A stretch of 64,000 bases of DNA from a virus. The DNA lies in the UHGV virus genome UHGV-0179428; one strand, 5' to 3'. Shown in pieces: positions 6,659-48,739 of the stretch. A model generated the notes under the pieces. That model saw only the letters and a program-made list of their open reading frames with translations. It did not search any database and was not told where the DNA came from. The position numbers and the translations under genes were made by a program. Numbering within the stretch: position 1 is the stretch's first letter; every line of letters starts with the position of its first letter.

Positions 6659-6841
6659 TTAAGGTTGGCGAATGTGAGACAGAAGCAGGCCCATCCGTAA
6701 TGGAACTGACGCGGTCATTGCCCTTTTATATTGCACAGTGCGTACTTTCGATTTACCAGGTCCCTTACGTACACGGTTGTAGCCAATAAAATATAGAGTA
6801 CCTGTAAAGAATCTGAGGTTATGAAAATATGGCTTCTTCAT
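6659..6841 (-). CDS. Small basic protein (60 aa), member of R-x-x-K-G-P-x-K family
   Basis: ORF; motif YNRVRKGPGKSKVRTVQY shared with two neighbouring small ORFs. Confidence 0.45.
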   Translation of the reverse strand: MKKPYFHNLRFFTGTLYFIGYNRVRKGPGKSKVRTVQYKRAMTASVPLRMGLLLSHIRQP

Positions 6842-40750: not shown

Positions 40751-41161
40751 TTAAATTTTAAGTTTATCCATAGCTACAACGATAGGTTTTTCCGAAGTGT
40801 CTAATATCCCTACCATTGGCACACCATCTACGACTTCGAAGAATGGTTTGTTATTACCAGAGCACAGACGTTTGTCGTTGTATTCGAGACGCTGGGCCTT
40901 CCACGTTTCGAGGTTGAGTACGGACATTGGGCTGTCGTAGCACCAGGCACCACCCTGCTCAACGATGAATACGTATCTGCTACCTTTGTATTTAAACAGA
41001 CTCTTTGCCTGACAGTACAAGCCGTCGATTTCCGTACAATAGAAATCATCGGTGCTATTGACGTACTTAATATTGTCTGGCAACTGTATTGTTTTTGCTG
41101 TAGTGTTGACAGAGAATAGAACAGCCATTGCAATGAGGAGAGTATTAATGATAGTTTTCAT
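40751..41161 (-). CDS. Secreted small protein with signal peptide, Cys-containing (136 aa)
   Basis: MKTIINTLLIAMAVLFSVNTTA signal-like N-terminus; several Cys. Confidence 0.5.
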   Translation of the reverse strand: MKTIINTLLIAMAVLFSVNTTAKTIQLPDNIKYVNSTDDFYCTEIDGLYCQAKSLFKYKGSRYVFIVEQGGAWCYDSPMSVLNLETWKAQRLEYNDKRLCSGNNKPFFEVVDGVPMVGILDTSEKPIVVAMDKLKI

Positions 41162-41172
41162 GATAAAAGTCC

Positions 41173-41658
41173 TTAGTATTTAGATTGTTCTACGTACTTC
41201 TTAACCAGGTAAGCGAATTCGGCAACACCGATATCACCGAACCAAATCAGATAACCGGGGTCGATGTTGTAGTAATAGCCGACGAGTTTCTTGGTGTGTG
41301 GGTTGTATAGCGTTACGATGTATTCCCAACCACAAGCGTTAGCTTTACAACCGCCACTTTCAATCCAGATTTTGTTGTTGATGTTTACCGGATACATGTT
41401 ACCGCCAGGGCCATCCATGTAACCTTTAGAGCCGAACATACCATCCAGCCCCACAGGGTCTAATGTTTTATCAACAACGGCTTTAAACGACTTATCGGTA
41501 TCGTACAAGTCGTTGATGTTTGGGCACGCATTTGGCTGACCTTCCCAAGCGTTTCCATCACAGGTAAGCAGTTCGTCTACGGAGGCCGCATCTACACTTG
41601 GTGTGGCACCGATAAACAAGAAAACCAGAAAGAACATCAGTGTGTGTAAACGTTTCAT
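41173..41658 (-). CDS. Secreted small protein with signal peptide (161 aa)
   Basis: MKRLHTLMFFLVFLFIGATPSVDAA signal-like N-terminus; Cys pairs. Confidence 0.5.
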   Translation of the reverse strand: MKRLHTLMFFLVFLFIGATPSVDAASVDELLTCDGNAWEGQPNACPNINDLYDTDKSFKAVVDKTLDPVGLDGMFGSKGYMDGPGGNMYPVNINNKIWIESGGCKANACGWEYIVTLYNPHTKKLVGYYYNIDPGYLIWFGDIGVAEFAYLVKKYVEQSKY

Positions 41659-41676
41659 TGTAACTACTCCTTTAGA

Positions 41677-42069
41677 TTATTCGGCAGGACGATTTAAGGT
41701 AACGCGTCCGATTAATTCGGCGTTGTGAAAGAAGTCCACAGCGGTATAGTTACCAACTGATAGCGGATGGATACTAACTGACATTACCTTTGGTTGTTCG
41801 CAAGCGATATCCGTCAGACGTTGGTAGACTTGTGCACGGGTGTCAGCAATGAGTAATCCCGTACACGTTTCACCACGCACTAAACGATAAACTTGCAGTT
41901 TACCGAAACTGCGCATTAACGTAGGCGTCTCGTCCGGGTTGATAATCGGTGAGTCAGGAGCCGGTTCGTAATAGCGGACATCCGAATCACCGAAAGCATA
42001 AGTGCCAGTAATTCCGACTGCACAGAAAATAATGATAGTATAAAGTATAGTTCTGATATTCATTTTCAC
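41677..42069 (-). CDS. Secreted small protein with signal peptide (130 aa)
   Basis: MKMNIRTILYTIIIFCAVGITGTYAFG signal-like N-terminus. Confidence 0.5.
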   Translation of the reverse strand: MKMNIRTILYTIIIFCAVGITGTYAFGDSDVRYYEPAPDSPIINPDETPTLMRSFGKLQVYRLVRGETCTGLLIADTRAQVYQRLTDIACEQPKVMSVSIHPLSVGNYTAVDFFHNAELIGRVTLNRPAE

Positions 42070-42091
42070 GCACTCTAAAAAAGATTAATAG

Positions 42092-42553
42092 TTATTTGTT
42101 AGGACGGGTGTGTCCACAGTTCTGGAAGAAAGTTTCAGACAGACGTTCGCCTTCTACGGTAAAGTTAGCGGCATCGTTACCATTGATACTCACACTGAAA
42201 GTTTTGGCATTACCGATAGCATTAACGAAAGCAACCCAAGCGTGTTCTGCTTTGTCACTACCGTCCACGGTAGGGATGTTATAGGTTTTGCCGTTTACGA
42301 CAATATCCATCGTGTTATCTTCAGCGTTAGTTGCACCTACGGGTTCACCGTAATACCAGACCATGCGACCGTAAAATTTGCGATTCGCAGTTTCAGTGTC
42401 ACAGTTGATAGACAGTCCGTTTCCGGCGGTGTCTTCAATTTCGTAAACTGCCTGGCCAGGGTTTTGTATTTGTTCCCAGCTGTTGATAGCGGCGTGTGCA
42501 GTATTGAGGCCGAAAGTTAAAATGGTTATTAAGAAAGTGATAAAGGTTTTCAT
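42092..42553 (-). CDS. Secreted small protein with signal peptide (153 aa)
   Basis: MKTFITFLITILTFGLNTAHAA signal-like N-terminus. Confidence 0.5.
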   Translation of the reverse strand: MKTFITFLITILTFGLNTAHAAINSWEQIQNPGQAVYEIEDTAGNGLSINCDTETANRKFYGRMVWYYGEPVGATNAEDNTMDIVVNGKTYNIPTVDGSDKAEHAWVAFVNAIGNAKTFSVSINGNDAANFTVEGERLSETFFQNCGHTRPNK

Positions 42554-42599: not shown

Positions 42600-42971
42600 T
42601 TAAATAACTGTGTTGGGTAATGCTTTAATCTGTGTATAACTATCTCCGATACCTCTTATCATTTCCAGACGCTCTTCTGTAGAAAGGCTTTGGTTAATGT
42701 CTTTGTCAAGATTGAACAGTGTCAAGAGTTTTGCAATTGCAACCGTCAGGTTGTCGGACAGCTCGTTGTTTTTACGCCATTCTTCGTTACGGAAAATAGA
42801 GATAAGGTCTTTCGCCTGGCCTTCAGCGTGTGGTTTGGCTAACTGCGCGTCACGCTGTTCGATAAGGTATGCTTCGTTAGTAAGTAAACGTTTCAGGTTT
42901 TCTGGGTTAGTGGCAGCGCGAGTAACGATCATTAATACAACAAACGGGTCTTTAAATAATTCGTTTTTCAT
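42600..42971 (-). CDS. Hypothetical protein (123 aa)
   Basis: ORF with AGGAG RBS. Confidence 0.5.
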   Translation of the reverse strand: MKNELFKDPFVVLMIVTRAATNPENLKRLLTNEAYLIEQRDAQLAKPHAEGQAKDLISIFRNEEWRKNNELSDNLTVAIAKLLTLFNLDKDINQSLSTEERLEMIRGIGDSYTQIKALPNTVI

Positions 42972-43020: not shown

Positions 43021-43045
43021 CACCTAAGTAATATATATCTGAAAT
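43021..43045. promoter_or_regulatory. Conserved 25-nt motif CACCTAAGTAATATATATCTGAAAT (copy 1 of 2); candidate phage promoter or regulatory site
   Basis: 23/25 identical to 47308..47332; lies ~50 nt upstream of the minus-strand gene starting at 42971 and next to the terminator of 43102..43680. Confidence 0.4.
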
Positions 43046-43063
43046 TATTTTTAATATTAACGA

Positions 43064-43097
43064 ACAAAAAAATAAAAGGTGGGGGTTTACCCCCACC
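43064..43097 (-). terminator. Rho-independent terminator (GGTGGGGG / CCCCCACC stem)
   Basis: 8-bp stem with TTTA loop and T-run on the minus strand after the stop of 43102..43680. Confidence 0.6.
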
Positions 43098-43101
43098 GAT
43101 G

Positions 43102-43680
43102 TTATACATCGAACCGGTACTGCCGGGAGTTAATGAGGAATTCGGTATTCAGCTCAATCCATTCGAGTAAATCACCCAACGGTAATCGGTTTGGGTTTTC
43201 TAACTCAATAGACGCTACCGGATAAGAGTTTACTAATTCCGTAATTGCCTCAATACCCTCTTGCGTTCCGTCGTCTTCTAAGGTGATTGTAAACGGCATA
43301 TCGGTACGTCCCGCATTAGGATTGTACAAACTGACTTTCGTTGCTTGCACAAACGCAGTCAGGTCGTCTCGCATAATGCGAATATCCGGCGCTAGAACCA
43401 CCCAGAGATGTTGCCCTGGCTGGAGTTTACGTTTTGCGTAATTTAAGAAAGGACTTGCCGTCAAGTTCTCTAAACTACAACAGATGTTACGTAAATGGAT
43501 TCCGCGTGGATCTTTGTAATCCACGTCGAAAATCCCCACAGGTTCATTCGCTGCCTGTTTTATCAGAAAGGCTAATACCGTGTCCGCTCTTTCTGGTAAG
43601 GAAAGCTCTATTCCCTCAAGCTCCCCATCGACGAGATTTTCTAACCAAACGTCTTTTCGCATTTCTATTAATCGGTACAC
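43102..43680 (-). CDS. Hypothetical protein (192 aa)
   Basis: ORF. Confidence 0.5.
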   Translation of the reverse strand: MYRLIEMRKDVWLENLVDGELEGIELSLPERADTVLAFLIKQAANEPVGIFDVDYKDPRGIHLRNICCSLENLTASPFLNYAKRKLQPGQHLWVVLAPDIRIMRDDLTAFVQATKVSLYNPNAGRTDMPFTITLEDDGTQEGIEAITELVNSYPVASIELENPNRLPLGDLLEWIELNTEFLINSRQYRFDV

Positions 43681-43692
43681 GGTTCCACCTCA

Positions 43693-44466
43693 CTAATAAT
43701 TAAGTTTTACATCGGCAATAAACAGCAACTGTTTACCGTGTTGCTGCACTTCTTTCCAACCTAGCTTCATAGCAGCGTCAACAACATCTATCATGCTGTA
43801 ACGAGACATCAACGCGGTTGATTTTGTTCCTGACATTAAGTAAAGCGGCTCGTTGGGGCAACGGTCGCGTGCATCAGGAAGTTCCCGAGAGACTGCTGAG
43901 CCTTCGGGTACGGTAACAACATGAATCACGGTAAATGGTCTTTTGTGGGTTAAATAAATACGAAACCCAACGTGTTCAGACTCATGAAAGACTTTTTTCA
44001 CAACCACATCTTTTAGTGTCGTCTGAACATCAATCCCAGGTAATATCATGGATTCGCGAGAAACAAAACAACGACTATTTTCAACCGTGGAGAAATAATT
44101 ACGTATCGGCAAACTGGCGTTATGATCGTGCAGTTTTTTGCTCAGTAGATCGAAGTTCAGTTCTTTAACTTTCTCTAGCCATTCTTTGGCTTGTTGTATG
44201 TAATAACTACCAACGGTGCGATAAGTCAATACCTTACCTGTGCTTACTTTCCAAAGTTTAACGCTTAGTGAATTCGGCTTATAGCGACGATACTCACCCC
44301 GCGTATAGTTGATGCGCTCGTAACGCTCTACATCGTCAACGGGCGCAGATTCGATCGATTGTAATTGCAACGTACGATCTAATCTATCGGCGAATAGTAG
44401 TGATGTTAGCGGACCTTCGATCAAATACGGTTCGGTTTTAAAGATATCATCTAGATGGATTTTCAT
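43693..44466 (-). CDS. Member 4 of a tandem paralog family with conserved C-terminal G-W...G-x-Q-L-L-F-x-A module
   Basis: C-terminus ALMSRYSMIDVVDAAMKLGWKEVQQHGKQLLFIADVKLNY. Confidence 0.55.
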   Translation of the reverse strand: MKIHLDDIFKTEPYLIEGPLTSLLFADRLDRTLQLQSIESAPVDDVERYERINYTRGEYRRYKPNSLSVKLWKVSTGKVLTYRTVGSYYIQQAKEWLEKVKELNFDLLSKKLHDHNASLPIRNYFSTVENSRCFVSRESMILPGIDVQTTLKDVVVKKVFHESEHVGFRIYLTHKRPFTVIHVVTVPEGSAVSRELPDARDRCPNEPLYLMSGTKSTALMSRYSMIDVVDAAMKLGWKEVQQHGKQLLFIADVKLNY

Positions 44467-44533
44467 TTCTATTTCCTTCTTAACAAAAGCCGCGACTAAA
44501 GCGCGGCAGTTAGAGAAAGTGTATTTTCACTTA

Positions 44534-45685
44534 TTAGAGGTCAGCAACAAACAACAGCTGACTGCCGTATTTTTGCACGTCAGCCCAACCGTAGTCTTTC
44601 CCGATTATAGGTAGATGTAAAGCATCCAGCTTCTCGTCTTTCGCCTTCAGTTTCGCCATTAACGCATTGGACTCCTCAGCACTGAGCAGTAATGCGGGTT
44701 CTTTTTCAGTACGTCCTTCTGCGGTCGGGAAGAAATCGTAATAGCTGCGAGTAGGTAAATCGACAGAAAAACTACGATTGCCTATTGTGATGAAGAACGC
44801 AACTCCTTCACAGTTAGCGTCTACACTACACGACCACCCCGCCTCTGTTAAAAGGTCTTTTAACAGACACCACACTTTAAGTTGGTTCTTAGAAAGTGTA
44901 CGGTAAATAGCAAGATGGTCAGGAAGTAAATGCACACCCATAACCACGTTTTCAGATTTCTCGTCAAGCAACTCTGGATGTTGAATCGGGAATAATAATT
45001 CACTGATACCCACGCTATCAATTTTGTTAACAAAATCAGTTAATTCATCTTTTAAGGTACGCACGGATTTTTCTCCTTCGACTTCAATAATCTGGTGGGG
45101 TTCGCCGCTAATTAAAATGTGGTAAACGATATCGTCGGTAGAACGGTAAGTGAGTTTGATAGCTTTATCACTTAACATTTCGTAGCGGAAGAAACTTTCG
45201 TACCAAGTTGACCCGAAATCGTTTCGTGTAAGTTCCTGCTCAACTTTGATGGTTTTTGCTTCAAAGCCGATTAACCCGCTTAATAACGCGAGTTCTGGTT
45301 TAGTTAAAATGTCCGCGCCGTGAAAGGGCACTTTCTCAAGCTGAAGACATAAATTACTGACTTTACCACTTGGGAAGACCTTAAACATAATCTTCCGGCT
45401 GCTACTCTTTTCCCTAACAACGAGTTTACGGTAATTTAGTCCACAATTTGTGTAAACCGCGAACTTGTAACCTTCAATTTCTTCATCGTAAGTACAGACA
45501 TCGACAGGCGCGATAATCTCATTGTATTCAGTAAGTACACAGCAGCCCAAGTTATAACCAAACAACTCACGTTGTAATGAAGACTCGATGGTTAAGCTTG
45601 GTAGCGACCAAGTCCGATTATAGCATCTGTCCATCAGTTCTTTTAGGATTTTGACATGTCCCGGTTTAGAAATAATATTTCGCAT
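44534..45685 (-). CDS. Member 3 of the tandem paralog family (383 aa)
   Basis: C-terminus ALMAKLKAKDEKLDALHLPIIGKDYGWADVQKYGSQLLFVADL. Confidence 0.55.
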   Translation of the reverse strand: MRNIISKPGHVKILKELMDRCYNRTWSLPSLTIESSLQRELFGYNLGCCVLTEYNEIIAPVDVCTYDEEIEGYKFAVYTNCGLNYRKLVVREKSSSRKIMFKVFPSGKVSNLCLQLEKVPFHGADILTKPELALLSGLIGFEAKTIKVEQELTRNDFGSTWYESFFRYEMLSDKAIKLTYRSTDDIVYHILISGEPHQIIEVEGEKSVRTLKDELTDFVNKIDSVGISELLFPIQHPELLDEKSENVVMGVHLLPDHLAIYRTLSKNQLKVWCLLKDLLTEAGWSCSVDANCEGVAFFITIGNRSFSVDLPTRSYYDFFPTAEGRTEKEPALLLSAEESNALMAKLKAKDEKLDALHLPIIGKDYGWADVQKYGSQLLFVADL

Positions 45686-45714
45686 TTTTACTCTCCTTTA
45701 GGTTTTTTCGTTAC

Positions 45715-46269
45715 TTAAGCAGGGTAAGCTAAGAACAACAGCTGCTGGCCGATTTTACGTACGGTATACCAACCGTGGGCTTTAGCGACCGCGATCAACG
45801 TTTCCCAGTCGTCAACATCGCACTGTTCATTCCGAAGTCTCGTAAAGAGTGCTTCGGCTTCGCTTTGGTTTAATAACTTACCTGGGTTGTCTGGGGTACA
45901 GTCAGTAGGGGTTGGAAAGAAAGCATACTGACGCGCTAAGAGAAAATCGACCAGATACTTGGTGTTCTCTTTATAAACCAGCGTGGAAGTCTTCCCTTCG
46001 TGGAAGAAGCTGCCTGTTTTCCAAACGCTATCTTTCAGTAGGCTTTGAAAGTAATCTGTAAAACCCGTTCTAAACGGGATATGGGCTTTACGTGTGATGT
46101 TGCGACGCAGTGGGGTTTCCTCCACAGCTTGTACACTTACCCCTACTATCATCGCACCTGGCTGAATAATGGTATTGGTCAGTACGGTATAAGGACGGAC
46201 AAAGAAATGTTCGCCTACGCCCTTTTCAAGGGTTTGGATAATTTCATTTTTCAGTTCAGTTTGAAACAT
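45715..46269 (-). CDS. Member 2 of the tandem paralog family (184 aa)
   Basis: C-terminus EALFTRLRNEQCDVDDWETLIAVAKAHGWYTVRKIGQQLLFLAYPA. Confidence 0.55.
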   Translation of the reverse strand: MFQTELKNEIIQTLEKGVGEHFFVRPYTVLTNTIIQPGAMIVGVSVQAVEETPLRRNITRKAHIPFRTGFTDYFQSLLKDSVWKTGSFFHEGKTSTLVYKENTKYLVDFLLARQYAFFPTPTDCTPDNPGKLLNQSEAEALFTRLRNEQCDVDDWETLIAVAKAHGWYTVRKIGQQLLFLAYPA

Positions 46270-46298
46270 GGTATATTCTCCTTTTTCGGTTTTCTTAA

Positions 46299-47036
46299 TT
46301 ACGCGGTTTTAATTAACAGCAGATAGTCCTTCGTAATCTCAGCACAACCCCACCCTCTCATCGCGGCGATTTTACGAAGATCAATTTTCTCGTGATATTT
46401 CAATAAGGGATCATCTGAGTTAATCTCAACCAGGTGGGTGGCTTTAGAAATCGTTTCTACATCAGGGATCTGTTTTGCTAAGTCTGATGCAATTAACTCG
46501 ATGATACGGTATCCCTCTAACACAGAAACATAAATGCGTAAACCATATAGCGTGCCCTCGTCTTCTAATGGACAAAGATCGATGCCGGGTCCAAGCAGTG
46601 ATAACTCGACGTTATCGGGAAGGTTTTCCGCATTTCGGAGTAACCCTATCCCATTTCTAAACAGAGGGAAGTAAGAGAATAGTGGTGGTAAAGCCCAACC
46701 GTTCCCAATAAGCACATCGGCGATACTAGTAGGTGTGTTCGCAAGGAGACGAATGTGGTCAGCCACAACTTCAAGTTCGGCGTCACTGATCAACTTATAG
46801 ATTAACATGACACTGGTTTCGGTATTAATAACAAAGAAGACGCGGTTGGCGTAACTGCCTATCACGTATTCGTCAATCATACAGTCGATAACGTCACTGT
46901 CTGGATAATCTTCAGGTTTAATTGTTCCAGCATCGATTAACTTAGCAGGTTGCGATTGTTTTATTAGTTCGTTAACCACCGTAGAAGAAAGTTCTAAACT
47001 GGTGTTGGTAAAGATATCGTCTAGTAATTCTCTCAT
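46299..47036 (-). CDS. Member 1 of the tandem paralog family (245 aa), divergent C-terminal module
   Basis: C-terminus DLRKIAAMRGWGCAEITKDYLLLIKTA retains G-W and LLL-x-x-A; first gene of the leftward block. Confidence 0.5.
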   Translation of the reverse strand: MRELLDDIFTNTSLELSSTVVNELIKQSQPAKLIDAGTIKPEDYPDSDVIDCMIDEYVIGSYANRVFFVINTETSVMLIYKLISDAELEVVADHIRLLANTPTSIADVLIGNGWALPPLFSYFPLFRNGIGLLRNAENLPDNVELSLLGPGIDLCPLEDEGTLYGLRIYVSVLEGYRIIELIASDLAKQIPDVETISKATHLVEINSDDPLLKYHEKIDLRKIAAMRGWGCAEITKDYLLLIKTA

Positions 47037-47357
47037 GATTTACTCGCTAATCCCAAAGAAGGGAAGGCTATTATTATGGATTGTAAAGGAGGTATAAGGA
47101 AGTCACTACGTTCCTCTGGGAAGAGTATGTCGGTATACTCCGTATACCTCCGCTATTTATATCCGTATACATAATGCCCCCTACCCCCTACCGGTATCCC
47201 GAGTAGCAGAATAAAGGGTCATAATGTAATTTTTTAGTAACCTTTAACGAAAGGTACTAAAAGGGTAACGTGTCCGTAGGGACTGAAGTACCAGTTCAGT
47301 CCCTATTCACTTAAGTAAAATATATCTGAAATCAATTCCGATCTAAGGAACGTCCCG
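47037..47357. promoter_or_regulatory. 320-bp divergent intergenic control region with inverted repeats, direct repeats and a strong hairpin
   Basis: Separates the leftward block (start 47036) from the rightward tail-fibre module (start 47358). Contains GGAGGTATA / TATACCTCC inverted repeat (47088-47096 and 47152-47160), TCCGTATAC direct repeats, an 11-bp perfect stem TAGGGACTGAA / TTCAGTCCCTA (47277-47305) and the conserved 25-nt motif (47308-47332). Confidence 0.5.
47308..47332. promoter_or_regulatory. Conserved 25-nt motif CACTTAAGTAAAATATATCTGAAAT (copy 2 of 2)
   Basis: 23/25 identical to 43021..43045; ends 25 nt upstream of the ATG at 47358. Confidence 0.4.
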
Positions 47358-48323
47358 ATGGAGAAATCCAGTGTTGATTTTTTCTCAATTGGTATCGTCG
47401 CGGAAGACAAACCCCGTGGTACAGATCGGGTAAAAGTGATACCAATTGAAACCAACTTTGCTAACCCTACCGTGGTGCAATCTGTTTCTTCAGCAACTGA
47501 AAAGACGCATGAAACATCCGGTGCAACAGATAACCTAACCATTAAGACGGGAAACACGATAACAGCAAAGTGGTGGAAGTTTAACTCCAACCGAATTAAT
47601 TCCCCTGACGTTAAACGAGAAGACTACGTTATCTTGTTACGTTTGGGGAAAACCGATATTTATTTTTGGATTGATCTGAACTTCGCTAACGTTAAGCGAT
47701 TAGAAGATGCGGTTTATGCGTGGTCGGCTGACCCTGAAAACCAAATGGCGGATGACTTGTCCAATGCGTATGTGTTGAACGTTTCGACGATTGACAAACA
47801 TATCACGCTAAGAACGAGTATGGTGAATGGCGAGAAAGCGGCGTGGTTGTTTCAGTTTGATAATGCAAACGGTACGTGGCAGTGCGTTGACCATAAAGGA
47901 AACAAGTATTACATTAACTCGGTTGAAGATGATCTCGGGTTTGAGAATGCGATGCTTTCAAAAGTGAACATCAACAAAGAAGATGCGTTCATTTATTCAA
48001 AGCGTTCTATTAACCTGGAAACGAAAACGATTAATGAAAAATGCGAAGTCCGCAATACGGAAGCAGCGAGTTCCGTTACGTTTAAAACACAAACCTGGTT
48101 AACAGAAGCGGGCAGTTCGACAACGTTTAAAACGCCGAACTTTAAACAGGAAGGGAAGGAAGCGATGTTCACCGGTAATTTGGAAGTCGCTAAGAACTTC
48201 AAATACGGTGGTACGGGTGAGGGTGTGGGTGTCTTTACGGTTAAAGATGCCATTATTTCCGGTATTACCTTTAGCGTTCACATTCACCAAGGTAAACATG
48301 GCCCGACATCACCTCCGCAATAA
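47358..48323 (+). CDS. Hypothetical protein (321 aa) at the head of the tail-fibre module
   Basis: ORF with AAGGAA RBS; Thr/Asn/Lys-rich, beta-rich composition. Confidence 0.55.
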   Translation: MEKSSVDFFSIGIVAEDKPRGTDRVKVIPIETNFANPTVVQSVSSATEKTHETSGATDNLTIKTGNTITAKWWKFNSNRINSPDVKREDYVILLRLGKTDIYFWIDLNFANVKRLEDAVYAWSADPENQMADDLSNAYVLNVSTIDKHITLRTSMVNGEKAAWLFQFDNANGTWQCVDHKGNKYYINSVEDDLGFENAMLSKVNINKEDAFIYSKRSINLETKTINEKCEVRNTEAASSVTFKTQTWLTEAGSSTTFKTPNFKQEGKEAMFTGNLEVAKNFKYGGTGEGVGVFTVKDAIISGITFSVHIHQGKHGPTSPPQ

Positions 48324-48511: not shown

Positions 48512-48739
48512 TTGAAATGGAGAGCTGTTATGTCTATTAAAGAGTTCTCTTCTGCTGAGCATATTCCAGAAGAGTTTAAGAAAATCGGTAACGTTAGCGC
48601 CTTCGGCGACACCGTTGATCATGTAACGGGTAAGCTGGCTGCTGAAGCTGAAAAAATTGGCGGCGACGCATTCAAAGTTATCGGTATTTCCGGCAACAAC
48701 AAACTGCACGGTAACGCAATTGTCTACAAAAAAGACTAA
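48512..48739 (+). CDS. Small protein (75 aa) bracketed by an upstream hairpin and a strong downstream terminator
   Basis: ORF with GGAGAG RBS; preceded by a 188-bp leader containing CTCCTCCC / GGGAGGAG stem (48440-48460). Confidence 0.5.
   Translation: MKWRAVMSIKEFSSAEHIPEEFKKIGNVSAFGDTVDHVTGKLAAEAEKIGGDAFKVIGISGNNKLHGNAIVYKKD

Follow-up and report, generated by a model that had tools for sequence, protein, structure and literature searches.

What do four consecutive genes have in common when their products differ in length and in most of their sequence, and what might they do together? The question is raised by positions 43,693 to 47,036 of a 64,000-nucleotide stretch of the UHGV virus genome UHGV-0179428 (the window; coordinates without another name refer to it). 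An initial annotation, made from the sequence alone, had described a tandem paralog family with a common C-terminal module at this place, and put forward the hypothesis that the module is a docking tail of host-takeover or anti-defence effectors. The analyses described here showed that the locus, which belongs to an SPN3US/Asesino-like jumbo phage of the family Chimalliviridae, is an operon of five genes, and that its first four genes are old paralogs belonging to one uncharacterized phage protein family.

The Array and Its Shared Module

The list of open reading frames (ORFs) agreed exactly, in position and length, with the four consecutive leftward genes originally described, whose products are 245, 184, 383 and 257 amino acids long. 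Their place as the first genes downstream of the control region at 47.0-47.4 kb was also confirmed. A Shine-Dalgarno-like sequence precedes each of the four; the spacers within the array are 29, 29 and 67 nt, and the fifth gene, of 192 amino acids, begins 12 nt past the 257-amino-acid gene. The operon is composed as follows.

46299..47036, (-) strand: 245-amino-acid gene, very divergent family member (degenerate module at about amino acids 175-245, DNA 46302-46514)
45715..46269, (-) strand: 184-amino-acid gene, family member (module at amino acids 110-184, DNA 45718-45942)
44534..45685, (-) strand: 383-amino-acid gene, family member (module at amino acids 311-383, DNA 44537-44755)
43693..44466, (-) strand: 257-amino-acid gene, canonical family member (module at amino acids 187-255, DNA 43696-43908)
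43102..43680, (-) strand: 192-amino-acid gene, last of the operon and not a family member (homolog of SPN3US gp177, phrog_20879)

The C-terminal similarity is supported by proper alignments for three of the four proteins, with blastp E values of 3.5e-12 (184 versus 383 amino acids), 2.7e-10 (383 versus 257) and 4.8e-6 (184 versus 257). A family hidden Markov model (HMM) made from these three members and their orthologs picked only the 184-, 383- and 257-amino-acid proteins among the 630 six-frame ORFs of the window (E values of 6e-21 to 2e-23 and of ~1e-21 to 1e-29), and no further copy of the module was found with it in the 64 kb. The hhalign probabilities for the same three proteins were 99.2-99.7% (99.5% for the 184-amino-acid protein). 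The claim that all four genes share the module consequently held for these three by blastp and HMM, while the 245-amino-acid protein is only borderline by sequence. The extent of the module had to be revised: the shared region covers not ~40 but ~65-75 amino acids, including at its N-terminal start a conserved 'PDxxDR[ST]xNEP' arm located upstream of the GW...QLLF segment.

The alignment of 81 sequences defined a motif whose N-terminal half is [LIF]-P(98%)-D-x-x-[DE]-R(86%)-[ST](97%)-x-N-[EDN]-P(100%)-x-Y-L(92%)-[ML]-S and whose C-terminal half is A-x-x-x-G(95%)-W(100%)-x-[ED]-V(91%)-x-x-x-G(95%)-x-Q(92%)-L-L-[FL]-[IV]-[AS]. Conservation along the polar arm is 77% for D, 78% for D/E, 86% for R, 97% for S/T, 75% for N and 100% for P. 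Conserved positions cluster in the arm, at the GW turn and in the two final strands, and both helices and the loop that joins them are variable; such a distribution is that of a binding surface combined with a folding core and not that of a catalytic site. The arm is intact in the 257-amino-acid protein (LPDARDRCPNEP) and degenerate in the 184-amino-acid protein (FPTPTDCTPDNP); this degenerate 'FFPT' arm is common to the 184- and 383-amino-acid proteins. The N-terminal parts of the array proteins, referred to here as the bodies, have no detectable sequence similarity to one another. A second 'helix-GW-hairpin' noticed by eye before the module of the 383- and 184-amino-acid proteins was rejected as an internal repeat (hhalign sub-optimal P = 0.11-0.66).

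The initial annotation did not recognize the module, and neither did the curated libraries: Pfam, NCBIfam, PADLOC and PDB gave no match, and the only matches were to PHROGs of unknown function. Profile searches against PDB sequences and Pfam returned nothing significant even with 36 members. The profile phrog_26772 matched the 383-amino-acid protein at 5.8e-7 and the 257-amino-acid protein at 2.5e-9; the PHROG HMMs themselves gave no match to the 184-amino-acid protein. An AlphaFold2 model of the last 75 amino acids of the 257-amino-acid protein, calculated from a 9-sequence alignment, had a predicted local distance difference test score (pLDDT) of 82, reaching ~90 over the core. In this model a short helix is followed by a strand, two helices and a beta-hairpin, that is, the conserved arm plus a beta-alpha-alpha-beta-beta fold, which by topology only can be called winged-helix-like. 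Foldseek comparison of the model with BFVD gave 17 significant matches, all to uncharacterized jumbo-phage proteins. Three of these belong to Erwinia phage Wellington, and two other sets, one of three and one of two proteins, have adjacent accessions; the other BFVD matches were insignificant and of winged-helix type. No family or fold match linked the module to tail fibers, fiber chaperones or another characterized structural domain, and the combination of profile search, structure prediction and Foldseek that had been suggested as a check mapped it to no fiber or chaperone domain.

Two readings of short motifs within the module were rejected. The QLLF residues, which recall the beta-sliding-clamp motif (QL[SD]LF-type), form the last beta-strand of the model (residues 64-69, pLDDT ~90) and are followed by conserved hydrophobic residues; they are therefore part of the fold core and not of an exposed disordered terminus. 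Reading 'PDxxDR' as a PD-(D/E)xK motif failed because neither the spacing nor the fold agrees with it, and because two of the paralogs have lost the residues.

The Divergent 245-Amino-Acid Protein

The first gene had been described as the more degenerate member, and its product indeed gave a nonsignificant E value of 2.9-5.3 with the module HMM. Other sequence comparisons were borderline: blastp against the 257-amino-acid protein gave 4e-4, and hhalign against the module gave a probability of 38-57% (P 1e-4 to 3e-4), with the longest alignment running from 'QIPD' to the terminal 'LLLIK'. The protein has a family of its own, consisting of 84 homolog clusters of near-constant length (243-250 amino acids). 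Its AlphaFold2 model (pLDDT 78, predicted template modeling score 0.72) ends in a short helix, a strand, a helix, a helix and a beta-hairpin, which is the order of elements of the module, with shorter helices and a small sheet before them. When the whole model was compared with BFVD using Foldseek, the top 8 and 9 of the 11 best matches were module-family proteins (best E 8e-5, probability 0.96), and the same family members in BFVD were retrieved with the module model. The TM-scores of the BFVD matches are low (0.17-0.23), indicating that the similarity is local. With the support of these predicted structures, the 245-amino-acid protein is probably a real but very divergent paralog. The array consists of three firm members and one very divergent member.

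Relatives and Distribution of the Family

A neighboring gene codes for a protein of 420 amino acids that shares 80% identity with virion proteins of the Erwinia phages Asesino and phiEaH2; its identity to the virion protein of Salmonella phage SPN3US is 76%. These values identify the window as DNA of an SPN3US-like jumbo phage. In the NCBI taxonomy Seoulvirus belongs to the Chimalliviridae, and the best virion-protein identity between the window and an annotated phage is ~80%, to Asesino. Near-identical loci are present in many ~225-kb contigs from E. coli, Salmonella and Shigella assemblies (Logan, ENA, NCBI isolate). The clade of the window is common in those assemblies and has no close representative in the annotated phage collection.

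In relatives, a single family gene occupies the syntenic slot, namely SPN3US gp175 (412 amino acids), Phobos gp176 (319), Asesino gp195 (223) and Huxley gp185 (235); phiEaH2 AFQ96642 (223 amino acids) is the counterpart of Asesino gp195 in the same slot. The slot lies between a divergent 'putative structural protein' (baseplate-like) gene and the homolog of the 192-amino-acid gene (gp177-like). Each single-copy ortholog carries the same C-terminal module on an otherwise unrelated body. SPN3US gp175 and its positional orthologs resemble the array proteins in the module (blastp 1e-5 to 8e-12; PHROG HMM 1e-3 to 2.5e-9), the slot and the variability of the bodies; in blastp the 257-amino-acid protein matched Phobos gp176 at 8e-12 and SPN3US gp175 at 1e-10. 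The differences are in copy number and surroundings. Phages with the orthologs have one tblastn-detectable copy, whereas the window clade has three clear copies and a very divergent one in tandem; this clade lacks the 105-amino-acid gp174-like gene, and the bodies of the window proteins have no homologs outside it. The single-copy genes correspond to four PHROGs of unknown function (33648, 26772, 24489 and 18480).

An exhaustive profile search of 1.84 billion representative proteins returned 74 at E < 1e-3, two of which (P0048 and P0080) were spurious repeat proteins. The module is located at the C-terminus of proteins of 185-534 amino acids, alone in proteins of 72-130 amino acids, and occasionally at the N-terminus; some stand-alone proteins begin right at the arm. 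The stand-alone and N-terminal forms indicate that the module is an autonomous domain and not merely the 'tail' that it had been called. A tblastn search with the consensus found it in 65 of 50,697 annotated phage genomes, all of them 197-307-kb phages of Enterobacterales or Shewanella (hosts: Erwinia, Salmonella, Klebsiella, Serratia, Escherichia, Cronobacter, Proteus and Shewanella). Every carrier genus that was looked up in the NCBI taxonomy (Seoulvirus, Iapetusvirus, Maaswegvirus) belongs to the Chimalliviridae; the genera of PhiEaH1 and FBKp24 are among them. Other copies of the family are found beside phoH in PhiEaH1 and beside glutaredoxin and deoxynucleoside monophosphate (dNMP) kinase genes. 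Three stand-alone copies have settings of their own: a 119-amino-acid module protein amid a tRNA gene cluster of Klebsiella phage FBKp24 (L011, 4944-5303), a copy on a metagenomic contig (L013) that resembles phage OBP, and a copy on a 22.7-kb contig where the neighbors code for a Cro/cI-type helix-turn-helix (HTH) protein, a DNA methyltransferase and a Bro-N protein.

Databases already contain the family, in the form of hypothetical proteins and of PHROGs with unknown function. No description of it was found in the papers searched, including a jumbo-phage comparative-genomics review; 'gp175' in those papers designates the phiKZ protease or the PhiPA3 RecA, not SPN3US gp175. Four things are added here: the grouping of these proteins in a single domain family that has a motif and a model, the recognition that the domain also stands alone, the stable array of four paralogs in the window clade, and the conserved control region that goes with it.

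Evolution of the Array

The modules of the paralogs are 32-39% identical and as distant from one another as from the orthologs of other genera, which indicates that the duplications are old. The 245/184/383/257/192 arrangement is kept with nearly constant gene lengths in relatives whose 245-amino-acid proteins are 52-72% identical. The ratio of nonsynonymous to synonymous substitution rates (dN/dS) of the four genes is 0.10-0.45 (0.16-0.31 for the 245-amino-acid gene) compared with 0.03-0.08 for the flanking virion genes. Purifying selection acts on all four genes, yet their divergence is much faster than that of the virion genes on either side. In the 184-, 383- and 245-amino-acid proteins the bodies drop to 33-46% identity where flanking proteins are at least 90% identical, with the 184-amino-acid body falling to 33-38% within the clade, and the last 70 amino acids are better conserved. 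The 383-amino-acid body is found only in full-length orthologs of 381-387 amino acids of the window clade, and tblastn with the full protein gave no match in the 50,697 phage genomes. The 257-amino-acid protein, which has the canonical arm, is the closest to the single-copy orthologs. The array had been presented as diversified; it is not a recent diversifying expansion but an old set, stably kept across the clade at a dN/dS of 0.1-0.45. A particular case is the 184-amino-acid ortholog of relative L005 (7770-8309), which has an in-frame stop and is called as products of 55 and 102 amino acids, the latter keeping the whole module; it may be a pseudogene or a shortened form that still functions, or else the stop may be a sequencing error.

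The Control Region

The following signals were located around the operon.

47312..47330, (-) strand: promoter-like AT-rich motif TTCAGATATATTTTACTTA, ~275 nt upstream of the 245-amino-acid gene; candidate early promoter for virion RNA polymerase (RNAP)
47277..47305, (-) strand: 11-bp stem-loop from RNA folding, directly downstream of the promoter-like motif
47085..47215, (-) strand: conserved non-coding leader element GGGGG-N-GGGGG ... CGGAGGT-hairpin-ACCGACA ... GAGGAACGTAGTGACTTCCTTAT, in the intergenic region that separates the operon from the divergently transcribed gene
44489..44507, (-) strand: terminator-like hairpin, GCCGCG-loop-CGCGGC with TTTTG after it, in the spacer of the 383- and 257-amino-acid genes (consensus scan only)
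43078..43097, (-) strand: strong intrinsic-terminator-like hairpin GGTGGGGG-TAAA-CCCCCACC followed by a T-run, which ends the operon after the 192-amino-acid gene
43025..43043, (-) strand: second occurrence of the promoter-like motif, at the start of the next unit transcribed leftward

The form TTCAGATATAT[AT]TTACTTA of the promoter-like motif, also designated the TCAGATATATWTTAC motif, has exactly two copies in the window against 0.07 expected, both on the strand of the genes. The copy at 47312-47330 is kept at the same place in relatives L005, L007, L008 and L009, and both places are conserved in the clade. In SPN3US, Phobos, Asesino and Huxley the motif takes the form TCAGATATATATTAC[CT]TAGGTGAG, is intergenic and co-oriented with the downstream genes, and is nearly identical across five genera (L001 9641-9655, L002 5142-5156, L003 8034-8048, and L010 5235-5249 and 8302-8316). 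It lies directly upstream of Phobos gp176. The stretch at 43025-43043 accounts for the only megablast matches of the region, which are to Asesino and phiEaH2. RNAP-encoding jumbo phages have a phage-specific, highly conserved AT-rich motif of ~10 nt near position -10 of the early promoters used by the virion RNAP (PMC7598289). The motif found here fits that definition, since it is AT-rich, upstream, co-oriented and intergenic, and it is a candidate consensus of virion-RNAP early promoters for the SPN3US-like group. By this analogy, early expression of the operon is plausible. No transcriptome of an SPN3US-like phage was found in the literature.

The stem at 47277-47305 is kept in relatives through a compensatory change from A-T to G-C (alignment A4), and it is probably the hairpin at the 5' end of the transcript. 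In the leader of the relatives there are ~100 additional nt (alignment A4 columns ~100-200; L005 ~6710-6810) that have no counterpart in the window between ~47262 and 47263; this extra stretch contains AGGAGA as a Shine-Dalgarno sequence, together with a small ORF whose translation by eye reads MSTEKKSGLDEVIELFKRYNPAIPR*.

The leader element, ~130 nt long, is essentially invariant in five phages of the clade whose coding genes have synonymous distances (dS) of 0.1-2. Across four genera it can be recognized as GGGGG-N-GGGGG...CGGAGGT-hairpin-ACCGACAYCCTT, including in SPN3US, Asesino, phiEaH2 and Huxley, always as a single copy in the same intergenic position; counterparts are at L001 5405-5545, L003 4440-4577, L004 4365-4503 and L010 4245-4370. 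Its hairpin (47128-47151) keeps its pairing through compensatory changes at 3 of 8 pairs, and the folding z of the leader is -4.5. An Rfam scan of the region including the element gave no meaningful match. In Phobos the element and the promoter-like motif are placed differently with respect to each other than in the window clade, and for this reason the element may be a unit of its own. It may correspond to a small RNA, a regulatory site or another class of promoter. The hairpin at 44489-44507 may, judging from its sequence, act as a partial terminator or attenuator.

Possible Functions of the Module

We hypothesize, with a probability of about 40%, that the array codes for non-structural early accessory proteins in which the conserved module docks to a common partner or mediates assembly, and in which the bodies vary. 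The proteins would be cytoplasmic, mostly acidic (most full-length family members have an isoelectric point (pI) of 4.4-5.4, and the median for the module is 6.0) and made early from a virion-RNAP-type promoter. Through the invariant arm and the edge of the beta-sheet, the module would attach to a single conserved protein, encoded either by the phage or by its enterobacterial host, or would mediate self-assembly, and the fast-evolving bodies would give differing specificities, so that the four paralogs would act as an adaptor/effector set in host takeover or counter-defence. The 257-amino-acid protein, with its canonical arm, would probably be the ancestral ortholog; the 184- and 383-amino-acid proteins, with a degenerate arm, and the 245-amino-acid protein, with a degenerate module, would be sub- or neo-functionalized copies. 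A similar organization is known from the antirepressor-type proteins with Bro-N, KilA-N or ANT domains, in which one small conserved domain is likewise found on unrelated bodies or alone, in early or accessory regions, and in multiple copies in some large phages. There is no homology to them (no Pfam match), and the module of the array is usually C-terminal; the likeness is therefore in workings and not in membership.

Several points weigh against this docking hypothesis. The paralogs that have lost the conserved arm residues suggest that the arm may not always be needed, and the predicted winged-helix-like fold could equally serve for binding nucleic acids. Gene number and length are stable and selection is purifying, instead of the turnover or positive selection typical of arms-race loci. 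In SPN3US, Asesino and Huxley the family gene is not immediately preceded by the promoter-like motif, and the designation of this motif as a candidate early promoter is one by analogy. As for the anti-defence function, the PADLOC HMMs (anti-phage defence components) did not match the array proteins, and the Pfam and PDB searches gave nothing suggestive of anti-defence proteins.

Degeneration of the arm in the 184- and 383-amino-acid paralogs would also fit a module that is a stable folding or oligomerization scaffold with no common ligand, in which case the four proteins would have unrelated accessory functions set by their bodies. The absence of detectable sequence similarity among the bodies points in the same direction, and what is invariant in the module is for the most part hydrophobic or turn-forming (residues P, L, G, W, V, G, L, L, F), as is typical of a folding core. 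Folding alone hardly explains, however, why the polar arm has been kept in phages distant from one another and also in stand-alone proteins whose sequence starts with it, and the stand-alone proteins of 72-100 amino acids imply that the module itself has a function. We consider this alternative unlikely, but more probable than the other alternatives.

The topology of the module, (alpha)-beta-alpha-alpha-beta-beta with the C-terminal hairpin as a 'wing', fits a derived winged-helix nucleic-acid-binding domain, in which case the proteins could serve early in infection as regulators or as architectural factors of phage DNA or RNA, with their own leader element as a possible target. Excisionase/MerR and RepE/CodY winged-helix folds have the same order of secondary structure and the C-terminal beta-hairpin. 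Weak or sub-threshold matches were to RepE, the CodY winged helix, R3H, RepL, replisome organizers, TBPIP/Hop2 and the Mnd1 winged helix; the structured non-coding element just upstream of the operon is unique and conserved across genera; and one stand-alone copy has Cro/cI-type HTH, DNA methyltransferase and Bro-N neighbors. The module nevertheless had no significant profile or structure match to winged-helix domains (HTH_17/excisionase, MerR, RepE-like) and lacks their recognition features: its second helix is variable and non-basic, the loop between the helices is variable and long (8-40 amino acids), the domain is acidic to neutral, and it has an additional conserved N-terminal arm. The likeness to lambda Xis in length and in a last strand of the type 'G-R-x-x-L-F' is a lead only, at the level of the fold; profile or PDB support was not found. 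A nucleic-acid-binding role is improbable.

Somewhat more improbable is the idea that the module is an address or docking domain peculiar to the Chimalliviridae. Its arm would bind the compartment machinery of the phage (nuclear shell, import apparatus or early-infection vesicle) or an enterobacterial hub, delivering the bodies as cargo early in infection; the stand-alone forms would compete or regulate, and the leader would control the operon.

The genes next to the operon invite the view that the array proteins are structural or assembly factors, such as baseplate or tail assembly chaperones or fiber-associated proteins. The divergent 321-amino-acid neighbor is annotated as structural in relatives and weakly resembles P2 gpV, and the 420- and 1440-amino-acid neighbors are virion proteins in relatives. 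The array genes, however, are carried by the opposite strand and form an operon of their own, complete with promoter-like motif and terminator, and the family orthologs are annotated as 'hypothetical' and never as virion proteins, whereas their neighbors are. Copies elsewhere, in the tRNA cluster of FBKp24 and beside phoH or glutaredoxin/dNMP kinase genes, and the lack of a fiber or chaperone fold or family match also make a structural role very unlikely. Lineage-specific tandem sets do occur in the same phage group, as in phiKZ-like paralog families such as the SPN3US head ejection-protein paralogs; these differ in being virion proteins cut by the prohead protease, whereas the array proteins are not annotated as virion proteins and are encoded in a separate early-type operon. 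That the module is a small enzyme or catalytic domain using the conserved D/R/N/E/S/Q residues is scarcely credible, in spite of the strong conservation of the polar residues of the arm and the Q of the last strand.

Nucleus-forming jumbo phages have many unannotated early genes, which bear on how proteins are selected, placed and regulated early in infection. Four PHROGs, orphan 'hypothetical proteins' and tiny stand-alone proteins are now joined in one family with a motif, a fold model, a fixed slot and a probable early promoter. In SPN3US, a genetic model system, gp175 is a small, defined target, and its arm is a defined target for mutation. If the module is a common docking domain, it would point to a conserved hub of the interaction between chimalliviruses and their hosts; if not, the array is an ordinary lineage-specific paralog family.

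Neighboring Genes

In the 321-amino-acid 'structural protein' encoded by the divergent gene (47358-48323, (+) strand), the C-terminal part weakly resembles P2 baseplate protein V (TIGR01644, with an E of 0.0035 that is below the cut-off). A 123-amino-acid gene at 42600-42971 ((-) strand; phrog_27024, unknown function) is present in the window and absent at that position in L005, L007 and L009; this is an insertion or deletion polymorphism located right after the second promoter-like motif. Regions 40751-42553 ((-) strand) and 48512-48739 ((+) strand) code for small proteins of 153, 130, 161 and 136 amino acids with N-termini that, by eye, are signal-peptide-like. The homolog of the 153-amino-acid protein in relatives matches Pfam YfjT (PF27224), and a gene of ~69 amino acids between the 420- and 321-amino-acid genes has a YdgH/BhsA-like match (PF07338). 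These small proteins appear to be host-like envelope or stress proteins encoded by the phage.

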